This document shows positions 1-6,136 of a DNA stretch of 6,136 nucleotides, in pieces (the stretch's first letter is position 1; each line of letters starts with the position of its first letter). A model generated the notes under the pieces. That model ran no database searches. It had not been told where the DNA came from and saw nothing but the letters and a program-made list of their open reading frames with translations. The position numbers were made by a program, and so were the translations under genes. Source of the DNA: a virus (lineage: Duplodnaviria; Heunggongvirae; Uroviricota; Caudoviricetes); IMG/VR virus record IMGVR_UViG_3300001149_000009, positions 1 to 6,136 of that record. The stretch is one strand, 5' to 3'.

Positions 1-92
1 AACTTGAAAATGATGAAACCCCTTTCAATTTCAAACCATCTCTACCCAAAAAGCTTGACAAAAAAAGAGATAAGGGTGCGGGCATTATCATC

Positions 93-623
93 ATGGAAGA
101 TTATTTTGCACCAAACAGCCGAGAAAATTTTATTTGCTTAGCCATGGAAAAACTAAATAGTAAAGCCATGCTAAAACAAGATGCCTTTAGAACATCATTT
201 TTTAAATCAATGCTAGCTTTCCGCGACTCAATAAATTATATCGACGTCAGATATTATTTATTATTCTCGGCACTAGAAGCACTTTGCAGATTTATTAAAA
301 ATGACTACTCCCCTGCCAAAACACCACAAATAATCACTCAGGTTTTAAAAGAATATGGTTTTAATGTCGAAAAAACAGGACATACATTAGCTCAAAGAAA
401 CATTATGCATTACTGCAAACTCCGTCACTCGCTGTTCCACAATGGTAAATACATTGCCTATCTTGATGAAAAAAACTCAGATGGCAAAATTGAAATTCAA
501 GATTACTCATCAAATTTGAATTTACTGGTGCCACTTGTACTAATGAAATTCATAGGATTTGATGACAATTATATAAACTGGGACTCATGGATTGATAGGA
601 ATCCATTTATCAGTAAAAAGTAA
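93..623 (+). CDS. Hypothetical protein encoded by an AT-rich cargo (moron) gene beside the tail completion gene S; possible HEPN-like fold (R-x4-H motif). True start may lie upstream of the window.
   Basis: ATG at 93 to TAA at 621-623, 176 aa. Counted 60-nt stretches (121-180, 181-240) are ~30% G+C versus 63-67% in sampled phage-gene stretches. Opposite strand to the late operon, convergent with S (stop 650-652). Motif LRHSLFHNG (R111-x4-H116) preceded by QRNIMH. No family recognised by eye. No in-frame stop between position 3 and the ATG at 93, and only a weak, distant purine run (aaggg, ~16 nt upstream) as a ribosome-binding site, so the gene may be 5'-truncated by the window edge. Confidence 0.6.
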   Translation: MEDYFAPNSRENFICLAMEKLNSKAMLKQDAFRTSFFKSMLAFRDSINYIDVRYYLLFSALEALCRFIKNDYSPAKTPQIITQVLKEYGFNVEKTGHTLAQRNIMHYCKLRHSLFHNGKYIAYLDEKNSDGKIEIQDYSSNLNLLVPLVLMKFIGFDDNYINWDSWIDRNPFISKK

Positions 624-649
624 ACTAAATTTTATAAATGTGGTTTTAT

Positions 650-1096
650 TTATCTCTGTAACCAATTTAGCAAAGCATCCTGAATGACAGTTTCCACATC
701 ATCATTTACACCAAGAAGGCGACGCTCTGCGTAACGGACCTCTGGCCCTTTACGACTGACGCGATCACGCAGGCCGTAATGGTGAACGCGGGCAATGCGC
801 TGCACCTTACCTTCAAACTGCACGCTGGCAGAATTGGCGCTGGCGGTAGTTTGAAGGTATTTGGTGGTGCGCAGCTTTGTAAACATCTGACGTTTGATGC
901 GCCCCTTTTTGCTGCGTGCTGTTACCCTACGCGGTTCATAACTGCTGCCATCTGGATTGCGCTGCATCCTGATGTTCTGCTGCTGTGTCCGGCGCAGTTC
1001 CTGCGCCAGCTGACGCATCATGCGGCTTCTTGTGGCTGGCTCCAGATTCGCCAGCAAAGCACTCAGCCAGTCGTCCACCTTCTGCAGTTCAGCCAC
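650..1096 (-). CDS. S: Tail completion protein S (P2 gpS-like)
   Basis: 148-aa ORF (MAELQKVDDWLSALLANLEPATRSRMMRQLAQELRRTQQQNIRMQRNPDGS...) that I recognise as P2 gpS family. It follows R in P2 order and its start overlaps the R stop (1089-1091) by 8 nt. Stop TAA at 650-652. Confidence 0.85.
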   Translation of the reverse strand: MAELQKVDDWLSALLANLEPATRSRMMRQLAQELRRTQQQNIRMQRNPDGSSYEPRRVTARSKKGRIKRQMFTKLRTTKYLQTTASANSASVQFEGKVQRIARVHHYGLRDRVSRKGPEVRYAERRLLGVNDDVETVIQDALLNWLQR

Positions 1097-1520
1097 GTTT
1101 CACCGTCCACATTTCTTCAGGTTCATCGGGCTCTGCTACAGCTTCAACGCTCGACACACTGCCGTCAGTGCTGACCAGCACACGCTCCGTCAGTTGCAGG
1201 TTAAGGCTGATATCACAGACATCGTTGCGCAGAATATCCACCTCAAAGGTGAATAACTTTTCCCGTAACGCCGGATTATTGATGGCATCGGGCTGGTTAT
1301 CCCGCAGCCACAGCAAGACCGGGGCCATCAGCAGATTCTGGTCGCCGCTGAAATCCTCAATCACCGCGTTCAGGGTGTAACGGTACTCCCATGACATGGA
1401 GCTGGCCCCCGTGGCAACCAGCGAACCGTTATCCACAAACAGATGCAGTTTATCCGGGTTATTACGGACATAAGGCACTGCTTTATTGAGGGCGTGGCGC
1501 AGGGATTGTGGTTTGTTCAC
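1089..1520 (-). CDS. R: Tail completion protein R (P2 gpR-like)
   Basis: Translation ...VNKPQSLRHALNKAVPYVRNNPDKLHLFVDNGS...LLMAPVLLWLRDNQPD... resembles P2 gpR as I recall it. The ORF-track start at 1541 is a TTG codon. I prefer the in-frame GTG at 1520..1518, which has an AGGAG Shine-Dalgarno 7 nt upstream. Start is uncertain (1520 vs 1541); either overlaps the 3' end of lysC. Confidence 0.78.
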   Translation of the reverse strand: MNKPQSLRHALNKAVPYVRNNPDKLHLFVDNGSLVATGASSMSWEYRYTLNAVIEDFSGDQNLLMAPVLLWLRDNQPDAINNPALREKLFTFEVDILRNDVCDISLNLQLTERVLVSTDGSVSSVEAVAEPDEPEEMWTVKRG

Positions 1521-1773
1521 TGTTTCGCTCCTGACACGCAATAATCATGTCTACTTTGTCTGCACAGACCGCCCAGGCGGCCTCCGTTTCATCCAGCAAT
1601 GCGTTCAGATCACCGTTATTGTGTGGCGCTGCCTGATCCAGCTGACACGGCGTCACTCGCGGACAACCACTGACGGTAAGCTGCACCTCCGGTGAGTGCC
1701 GGACGTTCCCGCAGCCGGATAATGTCAGCAGGCAAAGGAGTATCAGCCCAGCGGCGTAAATCCTCGTTCTCAC
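1483..1773 (-). CDS. lysC: LysC / Rz1-like outer-membrane lipoprotein (o-spanin), starting inside lysB in another frame
   Basis: 96-aa ORF starting at GTG 1773..1771 with a GAGGAA Shine-Dalgarno 7 nt upstream. N-terminus MRTRIYAAGLILLCLLTLSGC carries a signal peptide and lipobox (LSG|C). The mature part is Pro-rich with Cys residues. It begins within lysB (1616..2044) and runs past the lysB stop into the start of R, as for P2 lysB/lysC. Confidence 0.75.
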   Translation of the reverse strand: MRTRIYAAGLILLCLLTLSGCGNVRHSPEVQLTVSGCPRVTPCQLDQAAPHNNGDLNALLDETEAAWAVCADKVDMIIACQERNSEQTTIPAPRPQ

Positions 1774-2044
1774 GTTTCAGTTCCTCAATCCGATGTTGTC
1801 GTTGTCTCAGCAGCGCGCTGGTCTGTTCTGCTTCGGCATAGAGCCGCGCCTGCTCCCGGTTATTGGTTTCAGTCAGAATGGACAGGCTGATAAGCTGGCT
1901 GTTGCTCTTTGCCAGTGCCTGACTTTTGCTCCGCAGCTCGTCTGCCTGCGTGCTGATGGTCTGGCTGGCATCAGCCAGCCGCCACGTCTGCCAGCCCAGC
2001 GACGCCAGTAATAACGCCAGCACAACCAGCAGCAACCGGTTCAT
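1616..2044 (-). CDS. lysB: LysB / Rz-like inner-membrane spanin (i-spanin)
   Basis: 142 aa with an N-terminal TMD (MNRLLLVVLALLLASLGWQTW) followed by a charged, coiled-coil-like periplasmic region (ELRSKSQALAKS...RIEELKRENEDLRRW). Its ATG (2044..2042) overlaps the lysA stop TGA (2043..2041) as ATGA. Contains the embedded lysC start. Confidence 0.8.
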   Translation of the reverse strand: MNRLLLVVLALLLASLGWQTWRLADASQTISTQADELRSKSQALAKSNSQLISLSILTETNNREQARLYAEAEQTSALLRQRQHRIEELKRENEDLRRWADTPLPADIIRLRERPALTGGAAYRQWLSASDAVSAGSGSATQ

Positions 2045-2418
2045 GCTGCTACCTGTTGCGCCATCTGGTTACGAGTGATCCAGAAGGCAATAACGGTCAG
2101 CAGATAAAAGACCAGGGTAATGGCCCACCCCGTCCAGGCGAGACTTACGATAATCAGCAATCGCATCACCCAACTGATAAATACGTTTTCTTTTCGGGTA
2201 ATTGTCTTCAGCAAAGATGCCCTTAACTCCTGCCAGAGCGGGCCATTCTTAATTAACGCAGCCAGTGCTACCGGAATTACCGCCCATGTCAGCAAACAGG
2301 CTACCCAAACGCCGGACGCTGCCAGTACCGGAAAAATCCCCTGCGGATACACCATTGCTGCGATTAACAGCGCCATCCATAACATCAGAAACAGTCCGCT
2401 GATTAATTTCTTTTTCAT
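2041..2418 (-). CDS. lysA: LysA-like polytopic membrane protein (candidate antiholin / lysis-timing factor)
   Basis: Preferred start is the ATG at 2418..2416 (MKKKLISGLFLMLWMALLIAAMVY...), which has a GGGAG Shine-Dalgarno upstream and lies 1 nt past the endolysin stop (2422..2420). About 125 aa with about four hydrophobic segments. Position between endolysin and lysB matches P2 lysA. The ORF-track start at 2490 would add 24 implausible residues and overlap the endolysin by 70 nt. Confidence 0.7.
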   Translation of the reverse strand: MKKKLISGLFLMLWMALLIAAMVYPQGIFPVLAASGVWVACLLTWAVIPVALAALIKNGPLWQELRASLLKTITRKENVFISWVMRLLIIVSLAWTGWAITLVFYLLTVIAFWITRNQMAQQVAA

Positions 2419-2419
2419 T

Positions 2420-2932
2420 TCAGTTTGCTCCCTGTAAGCACCAGGCCATCTCCCGCGCACGGCGGTTATCCAGCCCCTGATTAAACACACCTTTTACATA
2501 AACCCAGCGCGGCAACTGTCGGCACGCATCCGCCCAGCGCCGCTGATTGAGCAATTTCACCAGCGTGGAGCTGCAGGCATTGCCCGTCCCCACGTTGAAG
2601 GCAAACGACACCGTAGCGTCATACACCTTCTGTGGTGGCTGTTGCTTCACACACCTTTCCAGTGCCCGCTCCACACGCAGCACGTTGGAGATCAGCCCTT
2701 CTGCTGCCTGTCGTTCCGTGATTGTTTTGCCGGGAATGACGCCCGATGTATTACCAATGCCGTCGGTCCAGACACCCGCGCTGCACTGATACGGCTGCAG
2801 ACGACAGCCTTCGTAATCGGCAATCAGTTTCAGCCCCTCCACGGAGGTGTGAAGCTGCTGAAACCCCGGCAGCGTGGCAGCAATAGCCAGCACGGCCCCG
2901 ACAAGGCAGCGTTTAACGATTGATGGATTCAT
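2420..2932 (-). CDS. SAR endolysin (phage lysozyme/muramidase, T4-lysozyme fold, P21 R-like)
   Basis: 170 aa. The N-terminus MNPSIVKRCLVGAVLAIAATLPGF is a weakly hydrophobic Gly/Ala-rich signal-anchor-release segment. YEGCRLQPYQCSAGVWT fits the E-x8-(D/C)-x5-T lysozyme catalytic motif. FAFNVGTGNACSSTLVKLLNQ and RWVYVKG resemble the P21 R lysozyme family as I recall it. GGGAGG Shine-Dalgarno lies before the ATG at 2932. Confidence 0.88.
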   Translation of the reverse strand: MNPSIVKRCLVGAVLAIAATLPGFQQLHTSVEGLKLIADYEGCRLQPYQCSAGVWTDGIGNTSGVIPGKTITERQAAEGLISNVLRVERALERCVKQQPPQKVYDATVSFAFNVGTGNACSSTLVKLLNQRRWADACRQLPRWVYVKGVFNQGLDNRRAREMAWCLQGAN

Positions 2933-3128
2933 AGTCCTCCCGCGAGATCTGCCCGTCGCGCAGAAGCTGGTAGGCTTTGTGTTTGTAGTACCAGTTGATA
3001 GCCAGCATCAGCACACCGATCATCAGGCCGCCCAGCGTTGAGGCATCCTTGATGGACAAATCGCCCAGCCAGGCCAGCACGACGGCGATGCAATACGTGA
3101 TAAAGGCGCTGATTCGCTCAAGCGTCAT
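2913..3128 (-). CDS. Holin, small two-TMD (class II, possibly pinholin-like)
   Basis: 71 aa with two hydrophobic helices (ISAFITYCIAVVLAWLG and LGGLMIGVLMLAINWYY) and a charged C-terminal tail (KHKAYQLLRDGQISREDYESINR). It lies immediately upstream of the endolysin, overlapping its start by 20 nt. ATG at 3128 is 3 nt past the X stop. Confidence 0.8.
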   Translation of the reverse strand: MTLERISAFITYCIAVVLAWLGDLSIKDASTLGGLMIGVLMLAINWYYKHKAYQLLRDGQISREDYESINR

Positions 3129-3131
3129 AAT

Positions 3132-3335
3132 TCAGTCCCATAGCTGGACGGTCTGCACGGTGGTGGTTGTCGGAATGTCCGGCAGCTCCACCTGCAGCCC
3201 GTGAGGTAAAAAGGGGCCGTATTCGGCAAGCCCCGGATTTGCCTTCAGTACCTGCTCCGTGACACCCTGCGTGCGCCCGTAATGACGCCAGCAAAGTGCG
3301 TCCACCGTGTCATACTGATGCGCACGCACTTTCAT
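3132..3335 (-). CDS. X: Tail protein X (P2 gpX-like)
   Basis: 67 aa (MKVRAHQYDTVDALCWRHYGRTQGVTEQVLKANPGLAEYGPFLPHGLQVELPD...), the same length and position as P2 gpX. Its ATG overlaps the L stop as ATGA (3337..3333). Confidence 0.85.
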   Translation of the reverse strand: MKVRAHQYDTVDALCWRHYGRTQGVTEQVLKANPGLAEYGPFLPHGLQVELPDIPTTTTVQTVQLWD

Positions 3336-3799
3336 CAGATAAGCTCCACTGTGCAGTGCGGCGCATCCTGCACCCGGCTGATGGCCCAGCGGGCGTCACG
3401 CCATAAATCACCGCTTGCTTCCGCCAGTTCCTCGCCTCGCTTCGCACCGGATGCCGTGGCGTCATAGTCCTGGTAACGTTCGTTGAGCATGGCGCGTGCC
3501 CAGCAGTAAACCGCGTTGAAATAGTGCTGAATGCGCTCGCTTTTGCCGTCCAGTTGTTCCGCCGGGACTTCTGCCAGCGAGGCATACCCCAGCATCTGCT
3601 GGCGTCTGCGAAACTCATACAGCTCTGCGTTGACCTCCGAAATTGCCGACAGCGCAACTTGCTTTAAACGCGGCTGCGTCACCGTGCCGTCGGTGCGCAT
3701 GACACTGCGAAACTCCGACAGGTCCACATCAGGCCAGAACGGCGTATTTCTGATGATTTCCGCCTGTTCCGGTGCCTGTTCTGGCGCAACAAACTTCAT
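3335..3799 (-). CDS. L: Head completion/stabilization protein L (P2 gpL-like)
   Basis: Preferred start is the ATG at 3799..3797 (MKFVAPEQAPEQAEIIRNTPFWPDVDLSEFRSVMR...), with an AGGAG Shine-Dalgarno 8 nt upstream. About 154 aa. It sits between M and X as in P2. The ORF-track start at 3862 has no ribosome-binding site. Confidence 0.85.
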   Translation of the reverse strand: MKFVAPEQAPEQAEIIRNTPFWPDVDLSEFRSVMRTDGTVTQPRLKQVALSAISEVNAELYEFRRRQQMLGYASLAEVPAEQLDGKSERIQHYFNAVYCWARAMLNERYQDYDATASGAKRGEELAEASGDLWRDARWAISRVQDAPHCTVELI

Positions 3800-3864
3800 G
3801 CTGCTTTCTCCTGAAATAAAGGGCGGTGGACGGGGTTTTGATGTGGCAGTGCCTTTCGCCACCC

Positions 3865-3889
3865 CGTGCCGCCCGTGCGCGGGGGCACG
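3865..3889 (-). other. GC-rich stem-loop in the M-L intergenic region (possible RNA structure; not a canonical terminator)
   Basis: cgtgcc(g)cccg-tgcg-cggg-ggcacg forms a roughly 10-bp G:C-rich stem with a 1-nt bulge and a 4-nt loop, just downstream of the M stop (3895-3897) and about 65 nt upstream of the L start. There is no U-tract on either strand. Confidence 0.3.
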
Positions 3890-3894
3890 TTCTG

Positions 3895-4545
3895 TCAGCG
3901 GCTGTCATTGCGCAGTCTGCGCTCCAGCTGCTGTTTGTCTTTTTTCACGCCACAGCGGGGATCGAGCTGTAACGCATGGTTGAGATGATTAAGGGCGGAA
4001 GCCGGATTGCTTTCACTCAGGACAGCGCCAATCGCTTTATGCAGACGCGCCCGTGACTGGTCCGGCATATCCAGACCGTCTGTCAGCTCCAGCGTCTGCA
4101 GCAACAGATCGGCATCAAAGCCGGTGGCGGCAAGCATTGCGCTCTGCGCTGCATCTGCCATTTCCTCTGCCAGCACGGTCTGCACGTTGCGGTTACCCAG
4201 CGGCATCACCCAGCCATGACGCAGGGCATGACGCCCGATCTCCAGCGCCCCGGCATAATCTCCGGCATCAATGCGCCACAGCATCACGTACATCAGCACG
4301 TCATCCTGTTGAGCGCCTCCGGCAGCCAGGACGCCCTCCGCCCAGGCGGCATATTTCGGCAGCAGCTCCACCTTTATTTCCGCTTTTTTCACCGTGGACT
4401 GAACGCCCTTGAGACGGCGGCGGTCTTCCGCCAGTTGCAGCAGCATCAGGTCATAGCCCGACGCGTGGCGAACGCTGCCGCCCTCGCGGGCGGCCTGTTC
4501 AGCCTGAACGCGCAGGCGATGCTGCCGTGCGGGACTCAGGCTCAT
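3895..4545 (-). CDS. M: Terminase endonuclease (small) subunit M (P2 gpM-like)
   Basis: 216 aa (MSLSPARQHRLRVQAEQAAREGG...LLPKYAAWAEGVLAAGGAQQDDVLMYVMLWRIDAGDY...). It lies directly downstream of N with a 3-nt gap, has a GGAG Shine-Dalgarno inside the N 3' end, and follows P2 order O-N-M-L. Confidence 0.85.
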   Translation of the reverse strand: MSLSPARQHRLRVQAEQAAREGGSVRHASGYDLMLLQLAEDRRRLKGVQSTVKKAEIKVELLPKYAAWAEGVLAAGGAQQDDVLMYVMLWRIDAGDYAGALEIGRHALRHGWVMPLGNRNVQTVLAEEMADAAQSAMLAATGFDADLLLQTLELTDGLDMPDQSRARLHKAIGAVLSESNPASALNHLNHALQLDPRCGVKKDKQQLERRLRNDSR

Positions 4546-4548
4546 GGT

Positions 4549-5607
4549 TTACGCTCCGGCTTCTGCTGCGGCGGCGCTGAAGTCGCCAATCTGGAGGTTT
4601 TCCACCAGTGCGGCGCAGCGGTAGTCCTCAACCACGTAGGCTTCGTTAACGGATTCAAAATTTTCAATCCGGTCACGTTTCGGGTTGTCGATAACTGAAC
4701 GGCGGCGGGTGTCTTCCTGCCAGTAGATGGACAAGTTATCCAGACGGGTGATCAGCAGCGCATTCGGCGGGAAGAACGGCGCACGCACGGCCTGCAGACC
4801 GCCCATGCGTTTCTGACTGATAATCATATCGGCTGCCAATTTTTCACTGTTTTCCTGCTCTTTGTTGACCAGCGGGAAATACTTGTCAGACAGCAGTTCA
4901 CGACCGCAAATCACCACCAGATCGTCATCGTCCTGGTAGACCACGTCGATAAGCTCATTGACCGCATCCATCACCACAGCGTCCAGGTTGGCATATTCGC
5001 CACCTTTCCCGACTTTCACCGCACCCGGTGTGGTTTCGCCGCCCGCGGTGGTGCTGCCCATGACGTGATCCGGTGCATCCTCACGGATTTTCTGCAGCCA
5101 GCCTTTATTCACATCCTGCAGCAGCGGGTTTTCACTACGGTTGGAGGTTTTCGCACGCTTCACGCCGTTAAAGCCGATCATGATGCGGTCCAGTGCCTGA
5201 CGTTTCACGATGGCGTCACGGATACGCACCTGGAAATCCTGAAACTTCGCCCACAGGTCCAGCTTCGCGTAGGTCAGCACCGTGTCAAAGTTGGTCTGCT
5301 CGCATTTATATTCCACATCGACCATCAGCGTCGGATCGACAGGTTCACGCTCTTTCGCAGTGGTGTCAGTGGTTCCGGCAATGGTGCTGCCAACACCCAG
5401 CCCCAGCAGCTGACCGGACTGCTCAGTCACTGGCGTGACGTTAATCAGCGTCAGGAATGCGGCGGACTGCTGGATCTGGTCTTCCAGCGTCTGCTGCACA
5501 GACGGCTCTACAGTGAACTTGCTGGACAGTTCTTCAACGGCCACACCGTTCAGACGCGCCAGCTGCTGCAGGTAAGCGTTAAAAGCAAAGCGGGTATTCT
5601 TCTTCAT
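4549..5607 (-). CDS. N: Major capsid protein N (P2 gpN-like)
   Basis: 352 aa, close to the P2 gpN length (about 357 aa as I recall). Translation MKKNTRFAFNAYLQQLARLNGV...VMDAVNELIDVVYQDDDDLVVICGRELLSDKYFPLVN... matches the P2-family capsid protein as I recall it. It lies 16 nt downstream of the O stop. Confidence 0.9.
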   Translation of the reverse strand: MKKNTRFAFNAYLQQLARLNGVAVEELSSKFTVEPSVQQTLEDQIQQSAAFLTLINVTPVTEQSGQLLGLGVGSTIAGTTDTTAKEREPVDPTLMVDVEYKCEQTNFDTVLTYAKLDLWAKFQDFQVRIRDAIVKRQALDRIMIGFNGVKRAKTSNRSENPLLQDVNKGWLQKIREDAPDHVMGSTTAGGETTPGAVKVGKGGEYANLDAVVMDAVNELIDVVYQDDDDLVVICGRELLSDKYFPLVNKEQENSEKLAADMIISQKRMGGLQAVRAPFFPPNALLITRLDNLSIYWQEDTRRRSVIDNPKRDRIENFESVNEAYVVEDYRCAALVENLQIGDFSAAAAEAGA

Positions 5608-5623
5608 CGGGTTTTGTGCTCCA

Positions 5624-6136
5624 TCAGCAATTGGTCAGAGTGTCAGCGGAGGCGTTACCGCCTGTTGCACGCTGGCGGTAGTCCTGGCGGCTGTCTTCAT
5701 GACTCAGCTTATTCACCAGTTCGTTAAAGGCGGTCTGCTGTGCCTGCAGGGCAGTCTCCAGCTCAGACAGGCGTTCATCCTGCTCAGACAAAGATTTTTC
5801 GGTGCGTGCGCTCAGGTTCTGCTGCTCAGTGGCGACCAGTTCCACGGCCTTATGCATATCAGAGAACCGGGCGTCATCGGACTGCTCTTTTTTGGTAAAC
5901 AGCGCCGTGACACGGGCAAACAGGGACGGTTTGTCGTCCTGGGCTTCTTCCAGTTCGATCACCGTTTCCTCTGCAGCGGTAAAAAGATTGGCGGGATTCT
6001 GCTTGCGGTTTGCCAGCGGGTTATGGGCTGCACTGGCGCTGAATGTCAGCATTTCCGTACCCAGACTGGCGGGATCATCAGTGGCGGCCAGGCCAACCAG
6101 GTAGGCTTTGCCCGTATCAGCGAACTTCGGGCTGAC
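5624..6136 (-). CDS. O: Capsid scaffolding protein O (P2 gpO-like), partial; 5' end beyond the right window edge
   Basis: The minus-strand frame is open from 6136 down to TGA at 5626..5624. Translation ...KFADTGKAYLVGLAATDDPASLGTEMLTFSASAAHNPLANRKQNPANLF... resembles the central and C-terminal part of P2 gpO as I recall it. The ORF-track M at 6052 is internal. Confidence 0.85.
   Translation of the reverse strand, partial: VSPKFADTGKAYLVGLAATDDPASLGTEMLTFSASAAHNPLANRKQNPANLFTAAEETVIELEEAQDDKPSLFARVTALFTKKEQSDDARFSDMHKAVELVATEQQNLSARTEKSLSEQDERLSELETALQAQQTAFNELVNKLSHEDSRQDYRQRATGGNASADTLTNC

Follow-up and report, generated by a model that had tools for sequence, protein, structure and literature searches.

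The stretch of phage DNA analysed here (6,136 nucleotides of an IMG/VR virus record, referred to as the window) begins inside a foreign gene, and we think it probable that bases 1-623 are the 3' two-thirds of an acquired one-gene moron that acts as a sensor-effector RNase abortive-infection module. The 288-residue product of the complete gene is a predicted HEPN RNase: sequence motifs and a structure model point to a family-specific N-terminal alpha+beta domain followed by a C-terminal HEPN domain with intact active-site motifs. The gene is self-contained and moves between P2 phages, apparent integrons and other islands. In the P2-like phages it occupies the interval between the late genes S and V, which carries different cargos, or none, in related prophages.

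Limits, Composition and Reality of the Cargo Gene

Bases 650-6136 of the window carry P2 late genes on the minus strand in their canonical order, O (part), N, M, L, X, Y, K, lysA, lysB/C, R and S. Gene V lies outside the window, and the S/V position of the cargo gene was established from homologous loci. The preliminary description of this DNA had placed a gene for a 176-residue protein at 93..623 on the plus strand, convergent with S. The reading frame, its strand and its convergence with S all stand, but the proposed limits do not. The frame runs without a stop back to base 3, and the profile of phrog_4373 aligns the 176 amino acids only to positions 114-283 of its 283 (E = 1.7e-86). The complete gene is present in E. 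coli DSM 103246 (locus L001, 8757-9623), where it measures 867 bp and encodes 288 amino acids, and its DNA is identical to the window across bases 1-623. The window therefore holds codons 83-288, the methionine at 93 is the internal M113, and the first 82 codons and the promoter lie upstream of the window (Table 1). In L001 the gene lies alone between the baseplate gene V and the tail-completion gene S on the opposite strand; it is antisense to the late operon there as it is in the window, in agreement with the orientation first described. At the other end of the window, the ORF at 5624..6052 (minus strand) represents only the C-terminal part of the capsid scaffold gene O, which measures 834 bp in L001 and is cut by the window edge (5624-6136).

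Table 1. Features of the cargo gene and its right flank, in window coordinates
Feature	Position	Strand	Evidence or remark
Cargo gene, codons 83-288 and stop	3..623	+	Open frame from base 3; identity to L001; phrog_4373
Tail of N-terminal alpha+beta domain and linker, residues 83-112	3..92	+	
Predicted HEPN (metal-independent RNase) domain, residues ~121-288	117..620	+	
E174-x3-R178, upstream acidic E-x3-[KR] motif	276..290	+	E in 58/59 and R or K in 57/59 divergent homologues
R223-H-S-L-F-H228, R-x4-H motif (predicted catalytic)	423..440	+	Invariant in 37/37; R and H each in 58/59
Spacer, AT-rich, 26 nt	624..649	.	Separates the stop codon of the cargo gene from that of S (convergent genes)
Gene S (tail completion / virion morphogenesis)	650..1096	-	Right boundary of the cargo site; annotated in L001 as virion morphogenesis protein

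The composition of the gene is foreign to the phage. The G+C content of 121-180 and of 181-240 is exactly 30% each, the value first reported for this segment, and that of 1-650 is 32.5%. The figure of 63-67% given earlier for the phage genes describes their richer stretches and not their mean: bases 651-6136 average 56.9%, with 60-nt windows that span 35-72%. Codon usage agrees with overall G+C in setting the cargo gene apart, as its GC3 is 31% versus 57-68% in the late genes.

AT-rich DNA whose product is annotated only as hypothetical might hold a spurious or decaying ORF within junk DNA. This explanation is refuted, and we give it practically no weight. At such base composition chance would produce 206 open codons with a probability of ~1e-7, and the longest frame among 2000 shuffles reached 156 codons (mean 62). 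The closest diverged allele (L044) differs from the others by 31-34 synonymous and 7-10 non-synonymous changes (dN/dS ~0.05), and the gene is under purifying selection. Moreover, the predicted fold is confident, and the 194 homologous clusters described below mostly match in length and in two-domain architecture.

When complete E. coli genomes were searched by megablast, 24 of them proved to have the AT-rich segment adjoining S. In two of the 24 (strains 61 and 64; L078:957-2460) the HEPN gene is interrupted by IS1 near codon 245, just past the catalytic motif.

A Predicted HEPN RNase with Its Own N-Terminal Domain

The 176-residue protein had been described as matching no recognisable family. 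This is borne out for curated models: neither the fragment nor the full protein matches any in Pfam, NCBIfam or PADLOC, no defence-protein model of PADLOC-DB v2 responds to either at E <= 10, and the sole match in PHROGs is phrog_4373, a family of unknown function. It does not extend to the superfamily, as motifs and fold place the protein among the HEPN proteins. A search of the literature for the accession of the cargo protein returned no mention.

Catalytic HEPN domains are recognised by R-x4-6-H at the end of helix 3, a polar residue (N, D or H) after the arginine, and an upstream E-x3-[KR] (PMC3710099). The structure model, a confident prediction, is a helical bundle in which the R-x4-H motif lies at the end of helix 3 (residues 216-229); a beta-hairpin (residues 233-246) separates the motif from the next helix. 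We counted motif residues in 37 aligned members of the family and in 59 more divergent ones with identities down to ~20%. Residues R223, L226, F227, H228, D163, Y166, F170, S171, E174 and R178 are invariant in the 37, and among the 59 the residue after R223 is N in 51, H in 4 and D in 3. These counts bear on the possibility that the HEPN fold is non-catalytic and binds a ligand or nucleic acid, or that the protein is a lysogenic-conversion factor that does not cleave RNA. Non-catalytic HEPN domains typically lose R-x4-6-H (PMC3710099), whereas the arginine, the histidine, the polar residue after the arginine and E-x3-R are each kept here in 57-58 of the 59 members, and we consider a non-catalytic role improbable.

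The relationship to described HEPN proteins is distant. None of the Pfam HEPN models reaches its threshold; HEPN_Apea is matched by 3 of the 59 homologues, the best at 17.6 bits against a cutoff of 24.4. Sequence searches of the PDB, with the single protein and with the profile, returned nothing meaningful, and Foldseek against the PDB gave no significant match. The N-terminal alpha+beta domain has no specific known relative and matches none of the described HEPN-associated N-terminal domains. Nevertheless, the cargo protein shares R-[N/H/D]-x3-H at the end of helix 3, E-x3-[KR] and the helical bundle with AbiJ, AbiD/F, the C-terminal HEPN domain of AbiA and ApeA-like HEPN proteins (PMC3710099). 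The AbiJ-type systems have the same architecture, an N-terminal domain of their own and a C-terminal HEPN domain, and they too ride on mobile elements and prophages. The cargo protein differs from these Abi-type proteins in falling below all Pfam HEPN thresholds, in its unmatched N-terminal domain and in the beta-hairpin after the motif, and its anti-phage and RNase roles are predictions of this study.

In structure the protein comes closest to the HEPN toxins of MNT-HEPN pairs (PDB 7ae2, 8xdj, 5yep, 1jog and 1wwp). These type II/VII toxins have ~130 residues and are paired with a nucleotidyltransferase antitoxin, whereas the cargo protein has 288 residues, an extra domain and no conserved neighbour. 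We rejected membership in this group as the gene is alone between V and S in the P2-like prophage, and at 21 other loci no family of neighbours recurs and no nucleotidyltransferase is among the top Pfam families. A relationship to Csm6/Csx1 (CARF-HEPN) was rejected as well: neither a CARF nor a Rossmann-like match was obtained for the N-terminal domain, the context contains no CRISPR, and the Foldseek E-values exceed 2.

The S-V Interval Is a Variable Cargo Site

The orf30 locus is one of three regions in which P2-like phages collect horizontally acquired genes (PMC3091744, PMC6823313). Using V, the cargo gene and S as a joint query, we read the span of the joined match in 60 evenly spaced records out of 1046 matching E. 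coli records. The interval is empty in about 33 of the 60, with ~68 bp between V and S (as in L015). It holds a DUF6216 protein of the P2 Orf30 type in six (E. coli B included), other hypothetical proteins of four sizes in seven, the cargo gene of the window in two, an FRG-domain protein in one (L013) and a TIR-domain protein, encoded on the late-gene strand, in another (L012). V was matched without S in nine records, and by a short partial match alone in one. The one V-without-S record that was inspected encodes a 566-residue AIPR-family protein (L014).

The S-V interval is thus a genuine variable cargo site, as had been proposed for the position after S, and the cargo gene fits a P2 moron at the orf30 site. 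The gene is dispensable for virion assembly because the empty allele is common. The preliminary description's view of a horizontally acquired gene that is not needed to build the virion is upheld by the foreign G+C and GC3, the antisense orientation, the variable site and the frequency of empty alleles. Of 40 IMG/VR loci, 38 place a member of the family between gpV and gpS, likewise antisense, and one of these belongs to a phage with only 45% gpV identity (L075).

The Orf30 protein of phage P2 and of the E. coli B prophage (DUF6216) resembles the cargo protein in its S-V place, its antisense orientation, its similar size (261 residues) and its being nonessential. Homology between the two was rejected (BLASTP E = 32; hhalign probability 0.1%). 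The papers on defence hotspots that we consulted centre on two sites, A-Q (old/tin) and Z/fun, and treat tail-gene hotspots only in general terms; we found no explicit mining of the S-V (orf30) site in them.

Exchange of the Module and Flanking Signals

When occupied and empty alleles are compared, homology ends exactly at the start codon of V and restarts ~43 nt inside the 3' end of S (window position ~693). These breakpoints imply that the exchanged unit includes, besides the cargo gene, the V-promoter spacer (L001:8662-8756) and the last ~14 codons of S (650-692). Every prophage or phage allele checked (L001, L003, L004 and L012-L015) has its own TGT-N12-ACA site ~50 nt upstream of V, and the site is different in each. 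We take TGT-N12-ACA to be the pattern of the Ogr activator site. A regular-expression search for it had no match in the scanned stretch of P2, although an activator-binding site is annotated for this spacer in the P2 record.

The identity of the cargo is uncoupled from that of the backbone. Between the window and L001 the cargo is 100% identical and the adjoining S gene 95%, and L044 has a cargo 98% identical versus a gpV 85% identical. The opposite is seen in L077 and L058, where gpW is 100% identical versus 36% and 56% for the cargo. This sequence pattern fits frequent replacement of the module through recombination in the flanking genes.

A promoter scan of the L001 locus found no sigma-70-like promoter in the 95-nt spacer between V and the cargo gene, a scan of the L001 region equivalent to the cargo/S junction found no terminator or terminator-like hairpin, and Rfam recognised no RNA family in the locus. 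P2 has an annotated terminator after S. One may speculate that late P2 transcription, with no terminator intervening, could run antisense through the cargo gene.

Distribution of the Family and Its Neighbours

A word-indexed search returned 78 homologous clusters, all unnamed, and an exhaustive HMM search of 1.84 billion representatives only 194, none of which links the family to a larger named one. The stronger matches are mostly ~280 residues long and cover both domains, and many of the weaker ones are short fragments. Homologues outside the Enterobacterales occur in Halomonas, Marinobacter, Vibrio, Shewanella, Methylobacter, Thiobacillus, Rhodanobacter, Smithella and others, none of them with P2 flanks.

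The distant homologues in Halomonas and Marinobacter appear to be integron cassettes. In Halomonas (L006:4693-11481) the homologue is the first gene beside an integron integrase (TIGR02249, 399 bits versus a cutoff of 265) and is followed by small genes on the same strand that encode a cupin and acetyltransferases. The Marinobacter homologue (L021:2258-5000) has an IntI-like gene nearby, which shares 54% identity with the IntI of Halomonas, and attC-like core sites on either side; the candidate attC hairpins fold with z-scores of only -1.4 to -2.1. Single-gene HEPN cassettes have been described before in integrons of gammaproteobacteria: the integron-cassette HEPN family (PDB 3jrt) is one, and the defence gene 'Esos' from the Vibrio cholerae superintegron (bioRxiv 10.1101/2024.07.02.601686), HEPN-like only and likened here by its description, is another.

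[quoted passage not shown] In phages the family nearly always occupies a single position within the late genes, and the lack of a terminator between the cargo gene and the late operon would also suit such a role. However, the site is empty in about half of the related prophages, the gene runs against the late operon with the Ogr-type site between it and V, and homologues exist outside phages, in apparent integrons and in chromosomal islands. We therefore give a role in the phage's own growth little credence.

At the 21 non-P2 loci, all-against-all clustering of the neighbours revealed no recurring partner gene, and the top Pfam families of the neighbours include no nucleotidyltransferase family. 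The neighbours include six integrases and scattered matches to defence models (SIR2/ThsA, pAgo, PD-T4-2, TmtA, NsnA, ZorD, LmuA and a restriction enzyme).

A further alternative is an addiction or stabilisation module, in which the HEPN domain would be a toxin with the N-terminal domain as its built-in antitoxin, and the prophage or integron would gain from the penalty on its loss and not from the exclusion of other phages. The structural resemblance to MNT-HEPN toxins agrees with this, as does the presence of homologues in apparent integron arrays, where toxin genes are common (PMC3710099); the disruption by IS1 in two strains is compatible with a cost to the host. However, no antitoxin-like or MNT neighbour recurs, one fused polypeptide is incompatible with the usual route to post-segregational killing, differential stability, and the other cargos at S-V (TIR, AIPR) are of the defence type. 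An addiction module is rather unlikely on this evidence, if somewhat less so than the non-catalytic and life-cycle explanations.

Proposed Function

From sequence features and the comparisons made above, the cargo gene most likely acts alone as an anti-phage or abortive-infection module, and the addiction, life-cycle and non-catalytic explanations are all less likely than a sensor-effector role in defence. The sensor-effector reading is based on the intact catalytic motifs, the AbiJ-type architecture, the defence-type cargos found at the same S-V site, and a pattern of mobility typical of defence genes. A defence role is well motivated; the RNase activity of the protein, its expression in lysogens, its trigger and its effect on phages are inferred.

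In the mechanism that we propose, the protein would be made in the lysogen and held inactive by its N-terminal domain. Upon infection by another phage the N-terminal domain would sense a phage-derived cue and release the HEPN RNase, which by analogy would probably be active as a dimer. The RNase would then cut tRNA, rRNA or mRNA, translation would stop, and the infection would be aborted.

Other Features of the L001 Prophage

Two further segments of the L001 prophage lie outside the window. A DUF262-domain protein is encoded directly beside the portal gene Q (L001:18440-19100), in the classical old/tin hotspot, and may be a second defence-type cargo of this prophage. At the Z/fun position (L001:2877-4693) a recombinase (invertase) gene stands beside inverted tail-fibre and tail-fibre-assembly genes, which suggests a segment for host-range switching.

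Significance

The cargo gene is a new, uncurated member of the well-known HEPN accessory and defence genes carried by prophages, at a site whose variability was already known. It is unsurprising in kind and a good candidate for experiment. More far-reaching, and a claim that we hold tentatively and lean slightly against, is that the family constitutes a hitherto unrecognised immunity system in which a single protein joins a HEPN RNase to a sensor domain of a new type, a one-gene cassette that moves between the S-V site, integrons and chromosomal defence islands. If this is true, the S-V interval, in which TIR, AIPR and FRG proteins are also found, would be an overlooked defence hotspot of P2-like phages beside old/tin and Z/fun. 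In a bolder extension, late transcription of the prophage could silence the convergent cargo gene, so that P2 would be spared its own abortive-infection gene.

About one complete E. coli genome in five contains a P2-like prophage, and many new anti-phage systems have already come from two of the cargo sites in these prophages. If the cargo gene does not protect its host, it is one more hypothetical prophage moron. If it does, it would be a compact defence in which one gene supplies both an RNase and a new sensor domain, and genes S and V would provide a simple flank-based recipe for harvesting further candidates.
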